This document shows, one piece after another, positions 13,291 through 24,646 of a stretch of DNA of 64,000 nucleotides. The DNA is from Cyanobacteria bacterium auto_48_18. Its GTDB lineage: Bacteria; Cyanobacteriota; Vampirovibrionia; Obscuribacterales; Obscuribacteraceae. The stretch is from contig JAVHQC010000029.1 of the NCBI GenBank assembly GCA_036170915.1, positions 262,950-326,949 on the forward strand, written 5' to 3'. Numbering within the stretch: position 1 is the first letter of the stretch; each line of letters starts with the position of its first letter. The translations under genes and the position numbers were made by a program. Below the pieces are notes generated by a model. That model made no database searches and was not told where the DNA came from. It saw nothing but the letters and a program-made list of their open reading frames with translations.

Positions 13291-14997
13291 CTACTTTTTC
13301 AATCTAAAAATATTGTATCTATAGTTCCAATCAGCAAATTCCTTAGCACCACTGCACCATGAGTGATACCGCCCCTCTCCTTCAGCAGTGTAATCTTTCA
13401 AAATGATTGACACGATGCCCATTTCCTGCAACTTGTCGTAAGTCTGGCCACCTTCCACCAATATTACAGCCGGTTTTTGAATCTGAATTTCAGCACCGAT
13501 GCGGCTGTACAGTTTGGCTTTAAGCTTAGTCAACCAGCCAAAAGGTTTGCCTAATATCTGATCAGTAAGACTGTGATCTTGAATATTAGCCATTGTACTG
13601 AGCGGCTCGCTACTGAGATAGTAGCCGCAAATCTGCCGATTGACTCGTGCATAAACTGGAAAAGTCGGCAGCAAGCGACCATTCAAAATCAAAACTTTTT
13701 GATCTGGCCTGGAATAGTTGGTCAGCGCCGTCTCAATATCAATGAAATCGGGATCTAGTGCTCTCGGACCAATTGTAACTGTAATGTTTTCCCGTCGCTC
13801 CATGGTTTCACAACCAGCCATGACCCCGAGACTGCCAAGGCAAAAGAGAGCGAAGAGATAAACCTTAACGCTGTTAACTCGCGTCTCTCTATGAGAAAGA
13901 TAGGGGTATCTTCTGGCGAAATTAGCTACTAACGATCCATCAATGAAAATAATGGCAATGACCGACAATGCCAAACACATTGACCATATCAATATTGATA
14001 GCTCGCTGCTGAGGCCGGTCATTGTCGACAAATAAATTGAAAAACCACCCATCATAACCGTCGCCAGGGGTCTCAAAAATGGTGCTCGACTAATTAGCCC
14101 AAAGCAAATGACCATTACAGCCGTGCACAAATAAATGACACTGCGCCGATCGGGAGTGGCACCATAGCCATAAAATGCAATCTGATCAAGGTGCAAGCTG
14201 GCAATCTTGAGTGGAATAATCCAGTCATCCAACTCAGCAAGGGCGGCAGCGTTTAGCGTCAATATCCACGTCCAAGATAATGCATACGCAGCAAGCAATG
14301 CCCAAAACTCAACCGGGGGTTTAAGCTTTTGAAACCGTGTAGAAACTAGTTCGGTTATTTCCACCAGCAATATAACCGGCAGAAATAGCGGGCTGATACC
14401 GGCTCCCAGACCAGCCAGAACTCCACAAAGAATCCGCAACCAAACTGGCGGCTTTGCGCCGGCCCAGCGAATTGCACGCAAAAATAAATAAGGCGTGAGC
14501 AGCAAACAAAAAATATGCTGCGCGCAGCCAAAAACAAATCCCATAGCAAAATTCGCCAGACCGACACCAACCAGCGCAGCAGCCAGTAAGCGCAGAGGCT
14601 TTTGCGGCAGCCTTGACGATGTAACAATGTAGAAACACAGCAAAAATGACAAGACAGCAGTTAGCGCCGTGATTATGTATGAAGAGAGTGCGCTTGACCA
14701 GAAGGGTGTGACCACAAGAATCGCACGGCTGCTGGCCAGGTCAGCAAAGAGCTTTGCTAGAAACACTGCTGGTATGCGCAGATAAGCAATTAAAAGAGAC
14801 TGATCAAAATAAAAATCATAAAAAGGCATTTGACCGGCAATGATTCGACCAGCGGCTTCCATCTCATAACAAACTGTGCCACTCAACTCCATGAAATAGA
14901 ATGCGCGATAGATCAAACTGGCACTGAAAACCAGGCAGGCAGCGGCAAGCAACATCACCGGCAGTTTATATAATTGATGTGGCTGTGAATCAGTCAT
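13291..14997 (-). CDS. Polytopic membrane protein; divergent paralog of the adjacent GT-C-like glycosyltransferase
   Basis: Many TM segments; colinear with 14990..16636 (GQMPFYD vs GRMPYVD, FGCAQHIFC vs FGQREHIFC, LRAIRW vs LRYLRW). Confidence 0.7.
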   Translation of the reverse strand: MTDSQPHQLYKLPVMLLAAACLVFSASLIYRAFYFMELSGTVCYEMEAAGRIIAGQMPFYDFYFDQSLLIAYLRIPAVFLAKLFADLASSRAILVVTPFWSSALSSYIITALTAVLSFLLCFYIVTSSRLPQKPLRLLAAALVGVGLANFAMGFVFGCAQHIFCLLLTPYLFLRAIRWAGAKPPVWLRILCGVLAGLGAGISPLFLPVILLVEITELVSTRFQKLKPPVEFWALLAAYALSWTWILTLNAAALAELDDWIIPLKIASLHLDQIAFYGYGATPDRRSVIYLCTAVMVICFGLISRAPFLRPLATVMMGGFSIYLSTMTGLSSELSILIWSMCLALSVIAIIFIDGSLVANFARRYPYLSHRETRVNSVKVYLFALFCLGSLGVMAGCETMERRENITVTIGPRALDPDFIDIETALTNYSRPDQKVLILNGRLLPTFPVYARVNRQICGYYLSSEPLSTMANIQDHSLTDQILGKPFGWLTKLKAKLYSRIGAEIQIQKPAVILVEGGQTYDKLQEMGIVSIILKDYTAEGEGRYHSWCSGAKEFADWNYRYNIFRLKK

Positions 14998-16636
14998 TGC
15001 GTTTATAAATGCTTATCCCGTCTTTCTTATCGATCATTTTGTAATTAGACATATATGAATCGATAAAGTTGTAGTTCTCGAAAACCCAATTCATCGGGTT
15101 GTCCTGAATATAAATCAACTTCGGTCTATTCTTAGTGATATCCTCGCTATACCAGGCTATAACCTGCTCTTTATCTTTTGTAAAATGATCTTTCTTGGCT
15201 TCACTCAGATCTGGACGGTCGATAATGAAAGTGAGAATAGGCAGCATCATGCCGTGTAAAAAGCGCGATGCCGGTCGGCGATCGGTTTGCAACATCACCG
15301 GATACCCAGGTGCCATGGAAGCACAGATAAACAGAACGGTGTCACCTTTAGATGAGTTTGTCAGACAAGAAGCCACAAAAGGATCCATATCACCACTTGG
15401 GCAAGTGCCGCTGTAGCCAAGATGCGCAAGATCGTAAGGCACCGAGTCATGTTGCTCCCGAGCATCGTTCTCTTGAGCGCTGCTCAAATAGTAGCCACCA
15501 CCTGCGATGCCCAAAATTAGCATCGCAAAAGTTATGCTTTTCAGCTTGTCTGCACCAATCAGTCGAGCAGGCAAAAGTTGATACAACAAGCAAAGTTCTA
15601 CGCCCACAGCCATGGCATTGCCCATACGAACGGCAACCATGTGGCAAGACCAGTCCTGACCCGCCAGAACGTAGATTAGACCAGACATAAAAGCAAAAGC
15701 GCAGGCTGCAGGCGCTAAACTGCTATAACGCGCCAGAGCCAGGGCACCTAGCGAAGTCAGCGCTAAAAGATAGAAATCGCTTCGCCAGTAAGTGGCAATA
15801 TTATAAATCGGCGAAGTAACATAATAAGAGTAGCCTTCTTTATAAATTGGCACCACAAACTGGAAAAATGCCTTCAGCTCTTGTGCCGGCAAAAAAATAA
15901 AATGCAGCAGGTAAATAACAATTACAGCCACTGCAGCCAACACCTCGGTAGCAACAAGGGGGCGCCATTTGCCAGTGCGTAACCACCAGGCAATCTCAGG
16001 CGCACAAGCCATAATCATAAAATGCGGCTTAAAAGCAAGACCAATGCCGGCAAACAAACCTACAGCAATGGCTTGATAGCGGCCTAAGCTGAAGCCTTCC
16101 CAGCGCAAATAACGCAGCAGAAAAAAGGGCGCATAGACGATGCAAAAAATATGCTCACGCTGGCCAAAATCTATGCGTTGAATTTGATTGAAATATGCCA
16201 CAGCCACCAGGGCAGCCACTCCTAGCAGTATTGCACCAAAGCGTCTTGCCGACAAAAGCACCCAGCCAATCAAAAAGCAACTGAGAAAGCTCAGGGCATA
16301 AACATACATTGAAAAGCTGAGCGGAATCGGAATATGAAAATATTTAGACACCAATACCGGTATCACTTGAAAGTAGATTGCCAGAGGCGGATTGACATCA
16401 AACATATCGACATATGGCATGCGACCTTCAAGAAGCAGCTGCGCCATGCTGACAAACAGCCCCTGATCACAATAAATCAGCATCGGATGATGGAGCCAAT
16501 AGTTACATCCTGTGGCCAGCAAAGACAGGGCCAGAGTCAAACCCACCAGCAAAAGCAAATTGGACAATTCTCCTGAGAATGGTCTCTTGTCTATTGCTTC
16601 GGTAGCCTGCTCCTGTCCGGACATACTAGTGCTCAC
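14990..16636 (-). CDS. GT-C-fold (ArnT/PMT-like) membrane glycosyltransferase, putative
   Basis: First loop CDQGLF...LLEGRMPYVDMFDVNPP, later FGQREH and KPHF; about 11-12 TM segments plus a C-terminal soluble domain. Confidence 0.7.
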   Translation of the reverse strand: MSTSMSGQEQATEAIDKRPFSGELSNLLLLVGLTLALSLLATGCNYWLHHPMLIYCDQGLFVSMAQLLLEGRMPYVDMFDVNPPLAIYFQVIPVLVSKYFHIPIPLSFSMYVYALSFLSCFLIGWVLLSARRFGAILLGVAALVAVAYFNQIQRIDFGQREHIFCIVYAPFFLLRYLRWEGFSLGRYQAIAVGLFAGIGLAFKPHFMIMACAPEIAWWLRTGKWRPLVATEVLAAVAVIVIYLLHFIFLPAQELKAFFQFVVPIYKEGYSYYVTSPIYNIATYWRSDFYLLALTSLGALALARYSSLAPAACAFAFMSGLIYVLAGQDWSCHMVAVRMGNAMAVGVELCLLYQLLPARLIGADKLKSITFAMLILGIAGGGYYLSSAQENDAREQHDSVPYDLAHLGYSGTCPSGDMDPFVASCLTNSSKGDTVLFICASMAPGYPVMLQTDRRPASRFLHGMMLPILTFIIDRPDLSEAKKDHFTKDKEQVIAWYSEDITKNRPKLIYIQDNPMNWVFENYNFIDSYMSNYKMIDKKDGISIYKRND

Positions 16637-17231
16637 TCCAAAGAGCTATGTTGTGCTGCTTGGTACAAATGGCGTCGAATTGAAAGTGTTTATCGGCGAG
16701 AAGTTTGCGGTAAGGCACAATATCGTCAGGCCTACCTTGCAATTCGGGTGACACCAGGCAAAGCTTAAAACCTGCCGCCTTCAAACTTTTATAATCGGAC
16801 TCAGTGAGCGAAATGTGAGTGAAACAATCGATCCAGACCCAGTCTACTTGACCGGCAAAATTGAGCACAGTGCTAATTGATTCATACTCTGAATAGCGTA
16901 AGGCAATGCGCCGCTCTCCCTGGCGACTGAGCAATACGATCATGGGCAGCGACGAATCAAGCAAGAAATAATTTTCGATTTTATACTGACGCATCAATTG
17001 CAAAACCCTTTCTTCAATGCGTTCGCTTTTGATGTTTAAAATTAGAGTGCCGTGCTTGTAAGCGGCAAAGAATGGCTCAGCGTCCTCTCCATCTTTAAAC
17101 GGGTCATGCTGCAAAATCAAGCGCTCGCCGCGATCGCGCAAATCAATTTCGCAACCAAACTCTCGCGGCAATTGCCGCAATGTCTCCAGCTGATTGATAC
17201 GGTGAGCAATATATTCCATTAGATTAGACAT
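16626..17231 (-). CDS. Small PLC/GDPD-like phosphodiesterase, putative
   Basis: IAHR, GCEIDLR, QHDP, LNIK, WVWID, SPEL and terminal ICT match the PI-PLC/GDPD TIM-barrel pattern. Confidence 0.65.
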   Translation of the reverse strand: MSNLMEYIAHRINQLETLRQLPREFGCEIDLRDRGERLILQHDPFKDGEDAEPFFAAYKHGTLILNIKSERIEERVLQLMRQYKIENYFLLDSSLPMIVLLSRQGERRIALRYSEYESISTVLNFAGQVDWVWIDCFTHISLTESDYKSLKAAGFKLCLVSPELQGRPDDIVPYRKLLADKHFQFDAICTKQHNIALWSEH

Positions 17232-17940
17232 TCTCCAGAGACTTTTTCAGCTTCAGACTAAACTCAAGAGTACGCCTGATAAAACGCATTTTTGATTTAA
17301 AGCCTGTATTCCATTTTGACTCTCCGTGAATACGCTCAGGGAAAACCACATCTAAACGAACGATATTGAGTCTCTGTCGGCGAGCCAAATAATAAGCGTA
17401 GAGATCCAGAGCAAAATCTTCTGGCGGTGAGCGCCATGACTCGAAAAAACTTCTGTGGAAAATATTGGGCTGGGCGTTAATATCCCATAAATTGCTGGCC
17501 AAAAAGCACGATTCAAAGACGCTCATGCCGGCGGTGAAGAATGAATCTGCCAGGGGGCGACCATGCCTCAGACCTTTAACATAGAGATCCGGAGAAAAAT
17601 TATGAGCTTCAATAATTTGCAGCGCCTTAACGATATCAGCTGGGTCGGTCTGCATATCAGCGTGGGTCCAACCAATAAATTCAGTCTGGCAGGCTGCGAG
17701 CCCCTGGAGAATGCCATAACCATAGCCTTGATTGACAGGCACTCTTAAACTCTTAGCAAAAGGAAACTGGCCAATACAGTCAGCAATCACTGCCGAACTC
17801 TGGTCAGTCGAACCATTGTCGACGAGCAAAAGCTCGACGTCATGACGCTGGCTAGCCACCGTCTGAAAGCGGCTCAAAATCAAGGGAATATTCTTCTCTT
17901 CGTTATAGCAAGGCATCACTACAGTAAACTTGAGACTCAT
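17224..17940 (-). CDS. GT2 glycosyltransferase, polyprenol-phosphate sugar synthase (DPM1/GtrB)-like
   Basis: VVMPCYNEE, VDNGSTD, NQGYG, HADMQ (DxD variant) and ERIHGESK motifs. Confidence 0.85.
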   Translation of the reverse strand: MSLKFTVVMPCYNEEKNIPLILSRFQTVASQRHDVELLLVDNGSTDQSSAVIADCIGQFPFAKSLRVPVNQGYGYGILQGLAACQTEFIGWTHADMQTDPADIVKALQIIEAHNFSPDLYVKGLRHGRPLADSFFTAGMSVFESCFLASNLWDINAQPNIFHRSFFESWRSPPEDFALDLYAYYLARRQRLNIVRLDVVFPERIHGESKWNTGFKSKMRFIRRTLEFSLKLKKSLENV

Positions 17941-19592
17941 GATGACACCACTTTTTTATATTGGTGCCATGAACATTTATCAAAAAAGGTCTGCCAGTAT
18001 TCGAAGGTTTTTAAGTCGTTGGGAATGCCAAATGAAATATAGTCATCAACTTCAAAGGCGACACACTTAAGGCCACCCTGAGCGAGTATACCAATCATAC
18101 TATCAACATAAAATTCGCCGTTGACACGAATATCGTCCTCAATCAATACCTTCAGAGCATCTAGGAAATAACTAGTTTTTCTAAAGTAAAATGCACCGAC
18201 AATGGCGTGATCTTGGCGCGGATTATTTGAGATCGCTTTCTTCACCGAAACACCGGTGACTATGGGAAAATCGGCTTCACCTGGCGCGGTGGTGAGCCAT
18301 CCGAACATATGAGGATTGCGCTCACTGGCAGGATGCTGCCTGAAACTAAAGGCCGCCACATCAATGCTTTGATCAGCCAGAAGCTTTTGCCATTTAATAT
18401 GGTCGTAGACTATACCATTGTCGCATGCACCAATAAGCAAGCTGTCACCCGGTAAAACCCGTGGTACCGCCTCTTCCAGGCCCACCTGACATGATATTGC
18501 CTGACCGCCTGATATGCCATGAAGTGCGACCACGCTGAAATTATTGAAGCGGGCAGTCAGTGTTGAGGCCAGAGTGCCGTCAATTAAATGCTCGCCCTGA
18601 GCAACAAATATATAGCGGTTGGCGCGCGGCAAATTATCGCAAGCCATTTGCACCATGGGTTTGCCTGATACCGTAATCAGTGGCTTGGCAATAGTGTAAC
18701 CGGCGTCAGCAAAACGCTGACCCCGACCAGCCATAGGAATCAAACAAACATCAACGCCGGCAGATTGAGCGGGGCCCTGAGTAATCTCTTTTTTAGCCGA
18801 ACCTTTAGCCGACAACTGTAATTTGGAATCAGCAGCCAGGCGGTTAAAATAATCTGACCAGTGCTGATATTCTTCGAGGTCTCGAGGAGTACCCCATTGA
18901 AGCATATGTTCAACTTCATAAATTGAGACGGGCAGGCCATCTTCGACCATCAAATTGTAAACCATGCTGACATAATATTCGCCGTTAATTTGAATATCAC
19001 GCTTAATTAGCTCAGCAAAATAATGGCGCACATATTCTCCGCGCGCAAAATAATAAGTACCATTCGACGCAAACTCAGCCATGCGATTATCAGTAAAAGG
19101 CTTTTTCTCTTGAATTGCTTGCAACCAGTGGTTCTCTTCGCGAATGAAGGCATAATTATCTATACCAAGCATATGCGGGTGAAAATTTCGATAGGCAGCA
19201 ATTGCTCCGGCCGCTTTGCGATTTCTAGTTACGGCAAGAAAGTCTGAATAATTCCAGTGCGAATAAAAATCGCAATAATTGACTATTGTCTCTGCCTCAG
19301 CATCAATGCGATCAAAGCACTGTGACACGGCATAAACAGGGCCTTTACGATGAGTATTGATACCAATAATTTCGCATCGTGGTGCCGCTTTACGTAAGAC
19401 GTCGCTCAAATTTGTGTTGACCATATGATCATAATTAACTACAAAAATAAAATGATCATTGGCGTCAAACATATCGACGACGTAGCTAATCATGGCCGCA
19501 CCGTCAACAGTGATTAGTGGTTTAGGTGCGCTGTATCCAGCCTGGCTAAACCTTTCACCCAATCCTGACATAGGAATGACGATCTGAGTCAT
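17937..19592 (-). CDS. Tandem two-domain nucleotidyltransferase-like (BcbE-like GT-A fold) protein
   Basis: Two copies of IPM(S/A)GxGxRFxxAGYxxxKPLI, each followed by EKK/VKK, NGE(Y/F)YV and G(T/I)PxDL. Confidence 0.85.
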   Translation of the reverse strand: MTQIVIPMSGLGERFSQAGYSAPKPLITVDGAAMISYVVDMFDANDHFIFVVNYDHMVNTNLSDVLRKAAPRCEIIGINTHRKGPVYAVSQCFDRIDAEAETIVNYCDFYSHWNYSDFLAVTRNRKAAGAIAAYRNFHPHMLGIDNYAFIREENHWLQAIQEKKPFTDNRMAEFASNGTYYFARGEYVRHYFAELIKRDIQINGEYYVSMVYNLMVEDGLPVSIYEVEHMLQWGTPRDLEEYQHWSDYFNRLAADSKLQLSAKGSAKKEITQGPAQSAGVDVCLIPMAGRGQRFADAGYTIAKPLITVSGKPMVQMACDNLPRANRYIFVAQGEHLIDGTLASTLTARFNNFSVVALHGISGGQAISCQVGLEEAVPRVLPGDSLLIGACDNGIVYDHIKWQKLLADQSIDVAAFSFRQHPASERNPHMFGWLTTAPGEADFPIVTGVSVKKAISNNPRQDHAIVGAFYFRKTSYFLDALKVLIEDDIRVNGEFYVDSMIGILAQGGLKCVAFEVDDYISFGIPNDLKTFEYWQTFFDKCSWHQYKKVVSS

Positions 19593-20713
19593 AAATTCTG
19601 CCTGTATTTTTCGGCATCCCAGTTATTCAAATATTTGATTTCGGCAGGGGGTAAAAATTCAACTGGCGCGGTGCCGCACGTTTGCAAAAGTACGTGCGAA
19701 CGCAAGACATCTTCAGTATCTCTGCACTTGCGCAGAGTTTTTGCCAATAACAAAATATGCTCGTTGCCTGCTATCAACACTTTAGGTGGGTGACCGTAAG
19801 TTTCAAAAAAATCTGAGACTCGGCGTAAAGCCGCGGGGCTATCCAGGTCTTCGAGGGCAAGCGCCGTAGAGCCGCAATATACAAGTTGATCAGGTGTGGC
19901 GCAACCGGCCAGCAAATATTGCGAATTTTCTTTGAGAACTCCATGCAATACTTGATCATCGCTGAGATATGCCAGCCAATTTGTAGAGCACACCTGGTTT
20001 ACCAGTGCCGAAGCAAAATTGACAAGTTTGTAGCGATAAAAATTGATGCCCATGGTGCTTGCTACGCTATTAACGTGCTGAGCGAGCGAATCTACCACTT
20101 CATTAGTTGTTTGCATCACCGCTTGCTTGTCGGCACCAGCCACAATTAAACCGTGATTCTGGAGAAAAATTACGATGGTCTGGCCCATTTGCCAGTTACT
20201 TTTAGCAAGCTCCTGCAAAAGCACCAGAGCCAGCGCTGCACCTGGCGTTTGGTAGGGCACGAGCAGGGCTTGTGGAAACAAATTACCAAGCACCTCTCTC
20301 CAATTGTTGCGACACACGGCGGCGGCTACAACAACTGGATGGGTATGCAGAGTAAATTTTCCCAGGGCGCAGTGCAAGAGAGTTTCAATGGACGGCCTGC
20401 GCCCTGTCGGCGTGAGAGCCAGGCTGACGGCGCTGTTGGCCTCATGATCAAACAATGCAAGCTGCTCAGGATTGCTTGAGCTGACCTTTGAAAACTTAGC
20501 CTGAGCCTGATGTAAAAAATCTAAAAGCGGCTGCCATTGCAAAACGCAAAAGTCGCCTTCACCGGCCACATCACTGAGAGCCATGCCTGAGGCTTTGACT
20601 AAGAGCCGTCCATCGCTAAGCTTGACCGAGGTGTTGCCGCCACCAGCCTGCACCAGATCGAAGCGTTCTCCGGCAAAACGCGAAATTTCAATTAAATCAG
20701 CAATGTCACTCAT
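19589..20713 (-). CDS. Class II aldolase/adducin family protein (rhamnulose/fuculose-1-phosphate aldolase-like)
   Basis: GGGNTSVK, KASG, RPSIETLLH, HTHP and LQNHGL (three-His metal site). Confidence 0.88.
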   Translation of the reverse strand: MSDIADLIEISRFAGERFDLVQAGGGNTSVKLSDGRLLVKASGMALSDVAGEGDFCVLQWQPLLDFLHQAQAKFSKVSSSNPEQLALFDHEANSAVSLALTPTGRRPSIETLLHCALGKFTLHTHPVVVAAAVCRNNWREVLGNLFPQALLVPYQTPGAALALVLLQELAKSNWQMGQTIVIFLQNHGLIVAGADKQAVMQTTNEVVDSLAQHVNSVASTMGINFYRYKLVNFASALVNQVCSTNWLAYLSDDQVLHGVLKENSQYLLAGCATPDQLVYCGSTALALEDLDSPAALRRVSDFFETYGHPPKVLIAGNEHILLLAKTLRKCRDTEDVLRSHVLLQTCGTAPVEFLPPAEIKYLNNWDAEKYRQNL

Positions 20714-20715
20714 GG

Positions 20716-21429
20716 TTAATTCACCTGCATCAAACTAAGCAGTTGAGAAAAATCAGAAAAAATAGTGACGTTGGCCATTTCTCTGGCTGAATCAGCCTGA
20801 TGCTGCCATTCTACCGTTTCCAACCAGAAAGATCTGATACCAAGGGCGGAGGCACCATGAATGTCACGCTCAAGGCTGTCACCGATCATAATTAAATCAT
20901 CAAAGGGCAACTTGAGTTTGGCGGCGGCAATCTCAAACATGCGCGCGTGCGGCTTTTCATGACCGCTTTCTTCACTGGTGACGATTGCTGAAATATAAGG
21001 GAAAATCTCAAGCGCAGCTATTTTATCGAACTGAATGCGGGCGGTAAGATCACTGACGATGGCCACGGGTAATTTGACGGCCTCGAGAAAAGCAAGGCAG
21101 CCAGGACGCAATTGCATGTTTTCGAAAAATACAGTCCAATAGATGTCTTCGGCCTGGGGAGCCAGCCGATAAGGCAAAATATCAAAATGCTCGCACACAC
21201 CTTGAAAATAAAGCAGGCGGCTATGCGAAGCGGCAAATCCGTGCAATTGTTGGTTAACGTGTTTGCGGCAGACGGCATAAGCTTTTTCGACAACGGCATA
21301 ATCTTTAGCAGTCTCCAGGGCTAACCAGTGCAGTGCGGCAGACAGAGCAGGCAAGTGGGCCCTCTGATAATCGTATATGGTGTTATCGAGGTCAAGAAGA
21401 ATACCCCTGATGCTCTTAACAACGCTCAC
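20716..21429 (-). CDS. HAD-superfamily (IA) phosphatase
   Basis: DLDNT motif I, VSD, EKP and MIGDSLERDI motif IV. Confidence 0.9.
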   Translation of the reverse strand: MSVVKSIRGILLDLDNTIYDYQRAHLPALSAALHWLALETAKDYAVVEKAYAVCRKHVNQQLHGFAASHSRLLYFQGVCEHFDILPYRLAPQAEDIYWTVFFENMQLRPGCLAFLEAVKLPVAIVSDLTARIQFDKIAALEIFPYISAIVTSEESGHEKPHARMFEIAAAKLKLPFDDLIMIGDSLERDIHGASALGIRSFWLETVEWQHQADSAREMANVTIFSDFSQLLSLMQVN

Positions 21430-23561
21430 TGATTTTCTTCCTTATCTTTCATCAAGTCATTGAGCACAAGCAAAATAATTAATTGCACAAATCCGCGCAA
21501 ACCTTCCACCCATTCAATCTCACCGTCTATCAATTCCTCTAAATTAGGAATCATGTCGCTGGCGAGCTTTTGCAGTAAGAACTTGGGCACTGGTTGAGAG
21601 AGAGTCAGGTCTTGTTTAGAAAGATTTTCACTGTAGTCCCAGTGCAAAAGCAATCCGTGACTCATTAGCTCTTGCACCAGTTCTTCAAGATGAATGCTCG
21701 AGCTAAGCGAAATTTTCAGTGATAGTTTGGCCTCGGCAGTGAGCGAGCCATCATCTAATAATGCTTGGGGATAATAGCGAATACAGAGATCAGCAAACTC
21801 TTTTTGCGGTGCGATAAATCTGTCTACATCAGTTTTACGACGAGTTACTTGAGCAGCAGCCTGTTGCTCTGTGTAGCCTCGTTCTCTATGATCTCTTGAT
21901 ACTTTCCAAAAAGTTTTGAGTTCCACTTCAGGATCCATAAAAATTTTGAGATCAATTACTTTGCGCGACTTTGGCAAATAAAATGTATGCAGGCCACTCA
22001 AGACAATGAAGTCATTGGGCTCAACGGTTGTGGCATTAGTAAAAGCACCGGTGGCGTGGTCATAATTGACGCGCTCGACACTGCGTCCACGCTTAAGGTT
22101 GAACAACGTATCGGCTTGCCTGTGCAAAAAATTAGCTTTGGGGTCAAGGTGGGTAATGTTCTTGCCTTTCCAGTTTGCATCATTGCGCGCCCATTTATGG
22201 TCAGCATCACCTTCAAGCTCTACCACTTTGTGGGCGAGCAACTTTTTGACGTCGTGCAGTAAAGTCGATTTGCCGGCACCACTATCGCCACCAATGCCGA
22301 TAACAATTGCCCGCTCTCGTTTGTATATGGAATTGCTGCGCACGCCAATGCGATAGCAGAGCACAATGTTGGCCATCAGTGCCGCTTCTAACAAGGTGAA
22401 CACCAGCGAGGCGAGATAGTTGCTATTGGTAGGAGCAAACAAATTCCAGGTGACCACCTGCCCTAGAAAAATTATGGCGGGATAATCGAAATGATGGAAA
22501 AACAGAAAATACAAAAGATAGAAGAAATACAAGGCATAGCCGGCCGGAACAATACGATTGTCACGACGACAATATTTGATCATGAAGATGCTGAGAAATG
22601 GTGCAATCCAAACGTACCAGCCTGGGGCGGGAACAATCAAGGCGACAAAAAGAGCAAAGACAATCAGCAGGAAAGCGTCGAGCAAATCGGTATTGATTTT
22701 GGCATAAAGAGCAAAGCGCACATAGGCTATGCACACGGCCAGTACGGGCAAAAAAATATGCATCGAGCCGATGTCTATATAAGATTCAAAAATTTGGCTC
22801 TGCTTAGGATTAAACAAAACAATGGCTTGAAAGCCTGGCGAAGCTAAAAATGGCACCACAAATAGTGCCAGCACCAGCAAAGCAAAAAGCAAATAGACTC
22901 CTGCACTTTTGCCTTTCTGATTGCGATAAAGATAAATCAAAAACAGGGGAACCGCTGCAGCCACGTGGGATTTGGTAGCCAGAGCCAACCCTGTTAGCAA
23001 GGCAGATTTAAAAGCATCTTGTTTACGTAAATAATAAAGCGCGGCAAACAGTATCGCCGTTGGTATCAAGTCTAGCTGCGAGTGAATATAACAAGCGTAC
23101 AAAATTATGGGTGATAGAAAGTAATACCAGAAAACTCTATCGACTCTGGTAGGAAACATTCTTACCAGTAACCAGGCAATTAGAATGTCACTCAGCAGCG
23201 TTGGCAATTTCATAAAGAAATTGACCAGATACAAATTTTCGAAGCCCAGAACTTTTAAGGGCAGACAGAAAAAGCCAAGCAAATAAAGCATGAGTGGCTG
23301 ATAAGGAAATTGATCGCGCTGAATAGTGGTCTGGTAGAAGAAATCCCAGGTGTTGTCGAAGTGACCGATAAAATGCTGCACGAACGGTATGAAGAGGGCG
23401 ACCATGTATCCGGAAGAAAACAGCACCATCAGGATAATCTTTGCCAGCACTACAAAAGCGAAGCTACCACCAGTCACGGGTGCCCGATTTTTAAAAGACC
23501 GCTGAGCTTCGCGGTCGACACTTTGCGCGCCGGTTTTTAGTGTAGTGTCCATCAAAACCAT
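21426..23561 (-). CDS. Fusion of a GT-C-like membrane domain and a phosphoribulokinase/uridine kinase-family domain
   Basis: N-terminal ~400 aa multi-TM with FPY, SPII..HSQLD and ATK; C-terminal IGIGGDSGAGKST, LDPKAN, YDHATG, GLH, WKVSRD..ERG and FIAPQKEFAD. Confidence 0.85.
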   Translation of the reverse strand: MVLMDTTLKTGAQSVDREAQRSFKNRAPVTGGSFAFVVLAKIILMVLFSSGYMVALFIPFVQHFIGHFDNTWDFFYQTTIQRDQFPYQPLMLYLLGFFCLPLKVLGFENLYLVNFFMKLPTLLSDILIAWLLVRMFPTRVDRVFWYYFLSPIILYACYIHSQLDLIPTAILFAALYYLRKQDAFKSALLTGLALATKSHVAAAVPLFLIYLYRNQKGKSAGVYLLFALLVLALFVVPFLASPGFQAIVLFNPKQSQIFESYIDIGSMHIFLPVLAVCIAYVRFALYAKINTDLLDAFLLIVFALFVALIVPAPGWYVWIAPFLSIFMIKYCRRDNRIVPAGYALYFFYLLYFLFFHHFDYPAIIFLGQVVTWNLFAPTNSNYLASLVFTLLEAALMANIVLCYRIGVRSNSIYKRERAIVIGIGGDSGAGKSTLLHDVKKLLAHKVVELEGDADHKWARNDANWKGKNITHLDPKANFLHRQADTLFNLKRGRSVERVNYDHATGAFTNATTVEPNDFIVLSGLHTFYLPKSRKVIDLKIFMDPEVELKTFWKVSRDHRERGYTEQQAAAQVTRRKTDVDRFIAPQKEFADLCIRYYPQALLDDGSLTAEAKLSLKISLSSSIHLEELVQELMSHGLLLHWDYSENLSKQDLTLSQPVPKFLLQKLASDMIPNLEELIDGEIEWVEGLRGFVQLIILLVLNDLMKDKEENQ

Positions 23562-23671: not shown

Positions 23672-24160
23672 CTATTTTGCGGCTTTATTATCGTCTGGAT
23701 AGTAAAGGAAATCGCAACGAAACTGAGCTGGTGCTTCTTTGAAATCTGCCGGCAGTGGGGCAAAAGGCGAAAGCATTTTAACCGAATCAACGGTTCTTTC
23801 GATGGCCCTTTGACCACCTGTGGCACTGACAGTATGAACATCGGTGCACAAGCCCGGCCTAGTAATGGTGAAGACCACCGCCACACTATATCTGCGATCG
23901 CTTTTGAGCGGTCTCCAGCCATCGGTCAAACGGTTTTGCAAATCGATGCAATATTGCTGTTGGGCCGGTGTAAAACTTGACTCGCTCAAGGGCATTACCA
24001 TCACCCGATGCGGGCCCACTGGCCTGGTTTCGGTGCTGGTCGTGGTAGATGTAGTGGTAGAAGTAGTGGTCGTGGTTCGGCCCACAGTATCAGTCTTACT
24101 GCAACCACTAACCATGGCGGCAGGGATCAGCAAGGAACACAAGAGAACCGACAGACGCAT
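23672..24160 (-). CDS. Lipoprotein with Thr-rich linker and TonB/TolA C-terminal-like domain
   Basis: Lipobox MVSGC, poly-Thr linker, W.P...VAVVFTITRPG and SPFAPLP. Confidence 0.7.
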   Translation of the reverse strand: MRLSVLLCSLLIPAAMVSGCSKTDTVGRTTTTTSTTTSTTTSTETRPVGPHRVMVMPLSESSFTPAQQQYCIDLQNRLTDGWRPLKSDRRYSVAVVFTITRPGLCTDVHTVSATGGQRAIERTVDSVKMLSPFAPLPADFKEAPAQFRCDFLYYPDDNKAAK

Positions 24161-24232
24161 TGGTAGACCTCACGGAAGATAGACCCATTCTACACGAGGC
24201 CGATTAACTCAACCATTCTAATAGTTCTCAAT

Positions 24233-24646
24233 TTAGTGCCTGTCAACAGGAACGGGTCGGCGCACTTGAGCACCCACGCAAAGACCACCATCAAAATCGA
24301 GGTCGAGATAGGCGTCGTTAAGTACGTGAGTCATGGTGTAACTCAGTTGCGTTGTTTTACCGTCGACGATTTTGCGCTGACATGCCCTGGTACCGAGAAG
24401 CTTTTCCATCTGTTCCACAGTCTTACCGATTAGTCTGCCCGAGCTAAGCAGATCCTGCACCATGGAAAAACGCGATGGCCCCACAGCAAAATCCCAGATT
24501 TCGCTATTAAAAGGAAGTGGTGGTGGGCCTTGCACAAAGCTCACACCAAGAGCAGCAATAGCAATCAAGAAAACAACCTCGAGAGCCACTAACCAGCGAA
24601 AAACAGGTCGTGTGCGCCATAAAGTTTTCCAATCGACTTTGTTCAA
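24233..24646 (-). CDS. Hypothetical membrane-anchored protein with SmpA/OmlA-like motif
   Basis: One TM segment, then PFNSEIW...RFSMVQDL...LIGKT.EQMEKLLG. Confidence 0.6.
   Translation of the reverse strand: MNKVDWKTLWRTRPVFRWLVALEVVFLIAIAALGVSFVQGPPPLPFNSEIWDFAVGPSRFSMVQDLLSSGRLIGKTVEQMEKLLGTRACQRKIVDGKTTQLSYTMTHVLNDAYLDLDFDGGLCVGAQVRRPVPVDRH

Follow-up and report, generated by a model that had tools for sequence, protein, structure and literature searches.

Layout of the operon and its genomic setting

The window analysed here is a stretch of 64,000 nucleotides from the genome of Cyanobacteria bacterium auto_48_18 (Obscuribacterales; contig JAVHQC010000029.1, positions 262,950 to 326,949). 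It contains an eight-gene operon, A to H, whose products may make a lipid-linked ketopentose for transfer to a surface glycan. The eight open reading frames (ORFs) lie on the minus strand between window positions 13291 and 23561, and their junctions measure, from A to H, -4, +2, -4, -4, -8, -11 and -8 bp. Coordinates and junctions confirm an earlier note on this DNA, which had described eight co-oriented, coupled genes over this span. The genes are as follows.

Gene A: 21426..23561, minus strand; 711 amino acids (aa), a GT-C-fold membrane domain (about residues 1-410) followed by a phosphoribulokinase (PRK) domain of the plant/cyanobacterial type (about 411-711)
Gene B: 20716..21429, minus strand; 237-aa HAD phosphatase, predicted ribulose 1,5-bisphosphate (RuBP) 5-phosphatase
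Gene C: 19589..20713, minus strand; 374-aa protein of class II aldolase fold, predicted ribulose 1-phosphate (Ru1P) epimerase or aldolase
Gene D: 17937..19592, minus strand; 551 aa, two tandem sugar-phosphate nucleotidyltransferase domains
Gene E: 17224..17940, minus strand; 238-aa GT2 enzyme with no predicted membrane helix, predicted polyprenyl-phosphate sugar synthase
Gene F: 16626..17231, minus strand; 201-aa phosphodiesterase-like protein of glycerophosphodiester phosphodiesterase (GDPD) fold, no hydrophobic segment
Gene G: 14990..16636, minus strand; 548-aa polytopic protein, six hydrophobic segments and a C-terminal soluble domain
Gene H: 13291..14997, minus strand; 568 aa, eight hydrophobic segments, a distant paralogue of G (23% identity)

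The labels that the note had given to A to F hold as well: Pfam recovers PF00485, HAD, Aldolase_II, two copies of NTP_transf_3 and Glycos_transf_2 in A to E, and F was placed by fold search. The ORF list and the Pfam scan also bear out its statement that the operon contains no NAD-dependent epimerase/dehydratase, Wzx/Wzy, ABC exporter or GtrA.

The operon converges on plus-strand gltX-cysS-like genes (labels taken from translations). Its GC content of 0.46 to 0.47 lies within the 0.45 to 0.51 of the window, with no sign of a foreign island. A scan for promoters and terminators gave numbers near chance (24 against 16.3 +/- 4.4, and 20 against 13.7 +/- 4.7). Upstream, at window positions 23672-24646, lie two small minus-strand ORFs, the first of them lipoprotein-like, and conserved counterparts of these precede the cassette in 11 loci of related organisms. 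Named close homologues belong to Obscuribacterales/Melainabacteria. D is present in 13 of the 14 other genomes of the host genus. In the order as a whole, a profile of the kinase finds a match in 30 of 107 genomes at an E-value of 1e-30 (26 with the full domain), so that the cassette is a stable feature of the genus but has a scattered distribution at higher ranks.

A PRK-type kinase joined to a membrane domain of GT-C fold

The kinase domain of A matches PF00485 with an E-value of 8e-36. Its closest solved relatives are cyanobacterial PRKs (114 bits, against 45 to 55 bits for uridine kinases), and its best NCBIfam family is PRK07429 (188.7 bits, against 76 bits for the uridine kinase family). 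Residues D42, H45, R49, Y90, H92, K143, R146 and R165, which we take to be positions that bind ribulose 5-phosphate (Ru5P), align with those of the cyanobacterial enzyme 6kev and are invariant in 32 of 32 homologues. The same invariance holds for all eleven positions checked in the P-loop and the Ru5P site. The kinase profile has a single match in the host genome.

The model of the membrane domain of A (pLDDT 92.8) matches GPI mannosyltransferase I, PimE and ArnT, with E-values of 4e-4 to 1e-3, and some family members give weak GT87, ALG3 or PMT_2 matches over this domain. Judged from the model, the fold of this N-terminal half resembles that of GT-C enzymes. The association of the two halves is tight: PRK is accompanied by this membrane domain in 58 of the 59 PRK loci of the survey described below. 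A second type of PRK-domain protein occurs in six genomes (G057, G058, G061, G062, G064 and G082), in open frames of 745 to 840 aa that match no more than the first 190 to 200 positions of the profile.

The soluble enzymes B to F

The best NCBIfam match of B is NF053830, the haloarchaeal RuBP 5-phosphatase (145.7 bits, next family 107.8), and this is also the top family for 15 of 15 homologues of B. According to the available part of its description, the haloarchaeal enzyme, offered 12 sugar phosphates, showed specificity for RuBP and yields Ru1P (PMC9700705). TIGR01689, the BcbF phosphatase, was not among the best 25 families for B.

Protein C contains PF00596 (Aldolase_II) and is nearest to the aldolase half of the bifunctional rhamnulose-1-phosphate aldolase/dehydrogenases (PRK08324/TIGR02632), while it is distant from the haloarchaeal Ru1P aldolase family (18 bits). 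Its residues E110, H123, H125 and H187 are invariant in 29 of 29 sequences.

The two halves of D, 27% identical to each other, each match PF12804 (NTP_transf_3), and the nearest structure is PDB 4evw (E-value 1.4e-10). Both domains keep the signature, with G10, R14, K24 and D108/D112 showing no variation among the aligned rows (32 of 32 and 34 of 34); weak IspD matches are found too. E matches PF00535, and its nearest solved relatives are ArnC and dolichol-phosphate mannose synthase (E-values 4e-8 to 3e-6). By sequence it has the features of the polyprenyl-phosphate GT2 enzymes of Gtr-type systems.

F had no Pfam match and no meaningful PDB sequence match, and was placed by fold search alone. 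Its model (pLDDT 94.5) matches glycerophosphodiester phosphodiesterases in Foldseek (E-value 1.3e-6, TM 0.71). Residues H10, R11, E28, D30, H42 and K68 are invariant in 29 of 29 sequences; presumably they represent the His-Arg, Glu-x-Asp and second His of GDPD enzymes. On the model, F combines the TIM-barrel fold with the motif of this family. Among the best 150 F representatives, fusions to D occur in three, a fusion to E in one and a fusion to the membrane-kinase protein in one, and a 2H-like domain was detected on two scanned F relatives, in one of them under the Pfam cut-off. No match to F was found among annotated phages.

Lineage-specific membrane proteins G and H

G and H have no Pfam match, and their joint alignment has no meaningful PDB sequence match. 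The Atlas look-alikes of G are named ArnT-like or carry PMT_2; for H, a look-alike with PMT_2 appears at rank 29. A G/H profile matches the membrane domain of A weakly (probability 28%, E-value 6e-4). The GT-C label given to three proteins in the earlier note is therefore borne out for the membrane domain of A by its structural matches, and for G and H only weakly, by Atlas look-alikes and the profile match. G is a probable acceptor-specific GT-C enzyme and H a probable GT-C enzyme or partner of one, both lineage-specific.

Paralogues of G occur at three further sites of the host genome. At L183:5348-12204 a G/H-like pair has a Glycos_transf_4 gene on one side and, on the other, a GT2 gene with a FAD-binding oxidase, which we take to be DprE1-like. 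This arrangement suggests a second lipid-linked sugar system in the host. The other G/H paralogues are at L184:5588-8946 and L185:6228-7820.

Conservation of a six-gene cassette

An alignment of F was used to scan species-representative genomes and gave 304 relatives; the counts that follow are from the best 80 loci by F similarity. The complete core, consisting of PRK, B, C, both D domains, E and F, is present in 52 of the 80, and several of the 28 incomplete loci, not exactly counted, end at contig ends. Counted separately, PRK is found in 59 loci, B in 59, C in 62 (and in 55 of the 59 PRK loci), D in 73 to 74 and E in 78. Complete loci include members of Bacillota, Bacteroidota, Leptospiraceae, Gammaproteobacteria, Campylobacterales, Nitrospirae, Chlamydiae and Cloacimonadota. 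As the loci were found with F alone and 52 of them carry all six genes, the clustering exceeds chance.

The co-occurrence foreseen by the earlier note is thus found for six of its eight genes, the other two, G and H, being present in only 15 and 14 of the 80 loci. Other large polytopic proteins replace them elsewhere: a further large polytopic ORF lies within 2.5 kb of 45 of the 52 complete loci. When 7-kb segments were drawn at random from the host genome, about 24% contained one, a rough control in which transporters would count too. Similarly, the description of a system without GtrA fits this operon, but not the family, in which GtrA is a usual member (at least 37 of 80 loci, and 29 of the 52 complete ones, fused forms excluded). 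A conserved 10-helix neighbour in related organisms was considered as a flippase and rejected, as it belongs to the bile-acid-symporter family.

The full set, with GtrA and in shuffled order, is also found on plasmids of Azospirillum brasilense, Escherichia coli and Hirschia baltica. The A. brasilense copy adjoins gmd and ABC-transporter genes. In E. coli the copy on an IncR plasmid (NZ_CP145712, L018:6022-14984) lies near IS26, and the copies on the 33-kb plasmids NZ_CP145712 and NZ_JCAPUP010000005 are identical over the 3.4 kb searched. The E. coli cassette is possibly a mobile unit of O-antigen modification.

Variant and viral loci

Two loci, L088 and L071, have neither PRK nor B, and keep E, F and only the C-terminal type of D domain. 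L088 encodes an AraD that passes its family cut-off (318 against 257 bits), along with an Rpe domain, a histidine phosphatase and a polymerase-beta-type nucleotidyltransferase; L071 has similar parts, with a 2H-family protein beside F. The Rpe and AraD of these variants point, at the sequence level, to pentulose phosphates as substrates. Zinc dehydrogenases are encoded together with D, E and F in three other PRK-less loci (L081, L083 and L086), of which L086 has Rpe as well. In L064, L087 and L099, C was not found, while PRK, B, D, E and F are retained.

Relatives of cassette genes are also found in viruses. Of 174 viral loci, the best 80 were compared: all 80 contain D, and PRK is present in 16, F in 16 and B in 9; D and an aldolase-like gene recur together in 60, and neither E nor the membrane domain of A was found in any of the 80. 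This distribution separates a soluble donor module from a lipid-transfer module, and E, GtrA and GT-C behave as the separable lipid module. On a 205-kb viral contig (L120:5773-13852), D, a class II aldolase, a GT61 gene, a small HAD gene and a short phosphodiesterase-like ORF lie in an island of sugar genes.

A proposed route to a lipid-linked ketopentose

We regard it as somewhat more probable than the contrary that the six core genes make a polyprenyl-phosphate-linked ketopentose from Ru5P, which GT-C enzymes would move onto a surface glycan. In step 1, the PRK domain of A would convert Ru5P to RuBP. B would then strip the 5-phosphate, leaving Ru1P with a free C5 that lets the furanose close (step 2). 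The role of C would be optional (step 3): it could alter the C4 stereocentre by a retro-aldol/aldol sequence to give L-xylulose 1-phosphate, a product proposed by analogy with the rhamnulose-type relatives of C, or drain surplus Ru1P. In step 4, one domain of D would form a nucleoside diphosphate (NDP)-1-ketose, F would free the nucleoside monophosphate via a 1,2-cyclic phosphate, with the phosphate staying on the anomeric C2, and the other domain of D would produce an NDP-2-ketofuranose. E would load the ketofuranose onto polyprenyl phosphate (step 5), GtrA, or in the host some other flippase, would flip the lipid-linked sugar (step 6), and the GT-C domain of A and/or the variable G and H would transfer it outside the cytoplasm (step 7). 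The sugar would be ribulose or a xylulose epimer.

What the analysis establishes is which genes are present, how they fold, which motifs they conserve and that they occur together; the steps built on this differ in strength. Steps 1 and 2 are inferred with good support, and steps 5 to 7 follow from family knowledge; steps 3 and 4 are the weakest. The PRK-like kinase of A, the resemblance of B to RuBP 5-phosphatase and the Rpe/AraD variants are independent lines of support for the predicted entry chemistry, as is, for a lipid-linked architecture, the combination of an E similar to ArnC and dolichol-phosphate mannose synthase with a GT-C fold. The proposal of the earlier note, ketopentose activation followed by lipid-linked transfer, has therefore been strengthened in its entry chemistry and its lipid architecture, while the identity of the sugar and every reaction are still inferred.

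Step 4 answers a chemical difficulty. A ketoside donor needs its phosphate on the anomeric C2, and PRK phosphorylates C1; GDPD enzymes act via cyclic phosphates. The sequence from NDP-1-ketose through 1,2-cyclic phosphate and 2-phosphate to NDP-2-ketofuranose is proposed because the cassette has a second nucleotidyltransferase and a GDPD-fold protein, and no counterpart of the kinase that could phosphorylate C2 in the BcbF-type modules discussed below. Support comes from the intactness of both D domains, from the fusions of F to D and to 2H-like domains, and from the 2H protein beside F in L071. We hold the move of the phosphate from C1 to C2 via a cyclic phosphate to be a tentative possibility.

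Weighing the proposal against alternatives

Several observations weigh against the pathway. The kinase of A, at 188.7 bits, does not reach the PRK07429 cut-off of 236; B and its homologues all miss the NF053830 cut-off of 330 (16 of 16, at 129 to 179 bits), and C scores about 68 bits where the PRK08324/TIGR02632 cut-off is 831. The Glu of C is presumably that of a true aldolase, unlike the Asp of AraD, and since it is retained, C may simply cleave Ru1P. GtrA was not found in the host genome (86% complete), nor beside 23 of the 52 complete loci. The GT-C identity of G and H is weakly supported, and the zinc dehydrogenases of L081, L083 and L086 could point to polyols. Moreover, the 80 loci anchored on F include many close kin and are not independent. 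A DNA search found the cassette in two of 5426 E. coli genomes, both times on a plasmid, and other DNA searches of E. coli genomes gave no copy. Finally, the O-antigen cluster of Yersinia enterocolitica O:10 is, in the available part of its description, without such genes (PMC11380512).

Four other scenarios are considered. The cassette could add a substituent through a C1-phosphodiester, either ribulose-1-phosphate or, after an unlinked reductase, a pentitol phosphate, in which case D would work in the manner of a CDP-polyol synthase and F would be a phosphodiesterase for editing or recycling. The weak IspD matches of D, the fold of F, which is that of glycerophosphodiester phosphodiesterases, and the zinc dehydrogenases found with D, E and F would fit such a scheme. 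However, PRK-type loci have no recurrent reductase, E is similar to the glycosyltransferases that act on polyprenyl phosphate and take the sugar from an anomeric NDP donor, and two intact nucleotidyltransferase domains would not be needed; we consider this scenario unlikely. It is rather unlikely, too, that Ru1P is only an intermediate, from which C would yield dihydroxyacetone phosphate (DHAP) and glycolaldehyde, or join DHAP to another aldehyde, so that some other ketose or a branched sugar is activated. Such a role would agree with the presence of C in 55 of 59 PRK loci, with its aldolase-type Glu and three His, and with the range of a haloarchaeal Ru1P aldolase, which takes several aldehydes according to the available part of PMC9700705. 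Yet C is not obligatory, as it was not found in three loci that keep PRK, B, D, E and F (L064, L087 and L099), and the AraD and Rpe variants indicate pentulose phosphates.

A third scenario takes A, B and C as a catabolic or detoxifying RuBP shunt, similar to that of haloarchaea, whose HAD and class II aldolase turn RuBP into DHAP and glycolaldehyde (PMC9700705, available part), and only loosely tied to an ordinary GT2/GT-C glycosylation unit. This we find improbable, given that 58 of 59 loci link the kinase to a GT-C domain, that the set stays together though the gene order is shuffled, and that spending ATP on RuBP merely for cleavage brings no evident gain. Ribose 1,5-bisphosphate (R15P) isomerase and glycolaldehyde reductase, as well as ribose-1-phosphate kinase, were not among the annotated recurrent neighbours, the genomes themselves not having been searched for them. 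Lastly, the kinase might use a nucleoside or another substrate that is not a pentulose, and the cassette make an unrelated donor, since PF00485 also spans uridine kinases and some homologues are annotated as such. PRK scores well above uridine kinase for families (188.7 against 76 bits) and for structures (114 against 55 bits), which makes this very improbable; the nucleoside preference that the earlier note had held would tell against its reading is, judged from sequence only, not what we see. Nor did the comparisons made here match the locus to a characterised non-ketose pathway.

Comparison with known systems

The proposed ketopentose pathway shares parts with several known systems. Gtr-type systems (GtrABC, ArnC/ArnT and, in Citrobacter, Und-P-Ribf/Xylf) have in common with it a polyprenyl-phosphate GT2 enzyme, GtrA in many loci and a GT-C fold, as well as a large membrane protein that varies and, optionally, an epimerase-like gene. 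They differ in drawing their donors from UDP-hexoses or, in PMC11127046, from phosphoribosyl pyrophosphate, giving aldofuranoses, and the main text of that paper has no mention of xylulose, ribulose or ketose. In the cassette, PRK, HAD, aldolase, double nucleotidyltransferase and GDPD-fold protein would instead supply the donor, and one GT-C domain is fused to the kinase.

Like the haloarchaeal non-carboxylating pentose bisphosphate pathway, the cassette pairs a HAD similar to RuBP 5-phosphatase with an adjacent class II aldolase in a setting without RuBisCO. Haloarchaea obtain RuBP from nucleosides via R15P isomerase and then degrade it (PMC9700705, available part), whereas in the cassette PRK would produce it as a precursor for glycans. 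The Calvin-cycle PRKs of cyanobacteria and plants provide the closest solved structures and the conserved substrate-site positions. The cassette kinase differs from them in being tied to GT-C, in scoring under the family cut-off and in its genomes: RuBisCO, taken as the mark of a Calvin cycle, was not found in the host genome (86% complete), nor in five of five other cassette genomes, which may be incomplete.

A last comparison is with the BcbE/F/G and KfoE (E. coli K4) modules, which likewise combine a HAD phosphatase with a D-family nucleotidyltransferase in surface-glycan loci. In all 26 sampled loci, BcbF-family genes adjoin, by eye, a 500-aa nucleotidyltransferase-like::kinase protein, absent from the A-H operon, whose kinase part gives a weak APH match. 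A D-family protein follows in the wider regions (64 to 95 bits on D profiles). PRK, aldolase and F were not found in five of the six wider regions, F appearing only in L216. The assignment of BcbE and BcbG to particular Pasteurella multocida proteins is ours, from their sizes. The fructose link of BcbE/KfoE, mentioned in the earlier note, thus holds in part: D connects the two families, yet the modules are not the same, as the Bcb type has an APH-like kinase, which could phosphorylate C2 directly, and implies no lipid carrier. A phosphodiesterase as part of the Bcb module is not borne out by the regions examined. The fructose branch of P. multocida type B is lost when bcbE or bcbG is mutated, a 2026 result that in the available part of the study is based on genetics only (PMC13552107).

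Related modules were met in other glycan loci. In E. coli, a HAD/kinase-like/D-family trio lies at galF (L220 and L221), and its gene order agrees with the one published for O92, whose glycan is a fructan; the serotypes of these strains are not stated, and the link is a lead. In the E. coli cluster annotated O20/O137 (L219:8472-11184), HAD, kinase-like and D-family genes come first, from which we predict that the O20/O137 glycan contains a ketose. At L216:2602-10263 (genome G157), a BcbF-type trio and a second module flank one capsule export locus. The second comprises a nucleotidyltransferase, an F-like protein, a HAD and a degenerate nucleotidyltransferase (two D-like proteins) and is also found on a Pseudomonas aeruginosa plasmid (L020); both are putative ketose-activation modules.

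Significance

No description of the gene set was found in the literature searched, which left most subscription journals outside its coverage. The donor pathway is probably new, and the polyprenyl-linked transfer itself is of a known kind. With a repurposed Calvin-cycle kinase, two nucleotidyltransferase domains and a GDPD-fold cyclase, an enzymatic way to activate a ketopentofuranose may have become recognisable for the first time, although we put this forward with considerable doubt. With similar reserve, the D/F pair could be a general device for ketose activation shared by bacteria and viruses, an alternative to the kinase of the BcbF module.

If the proposal is true, the cassette would supply the missing route by which bacteria activate five-carbon keto-sugars. 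Four soluble proteins and one soluble kinase domain make ketofuranoside activation directly testable from Ru5P. A PRK gene, by itself, is no evidence of carbon fixation, and genomes with the cassette would be predicted to make acid-labile surface sugars that routine hydrolysis could miss.

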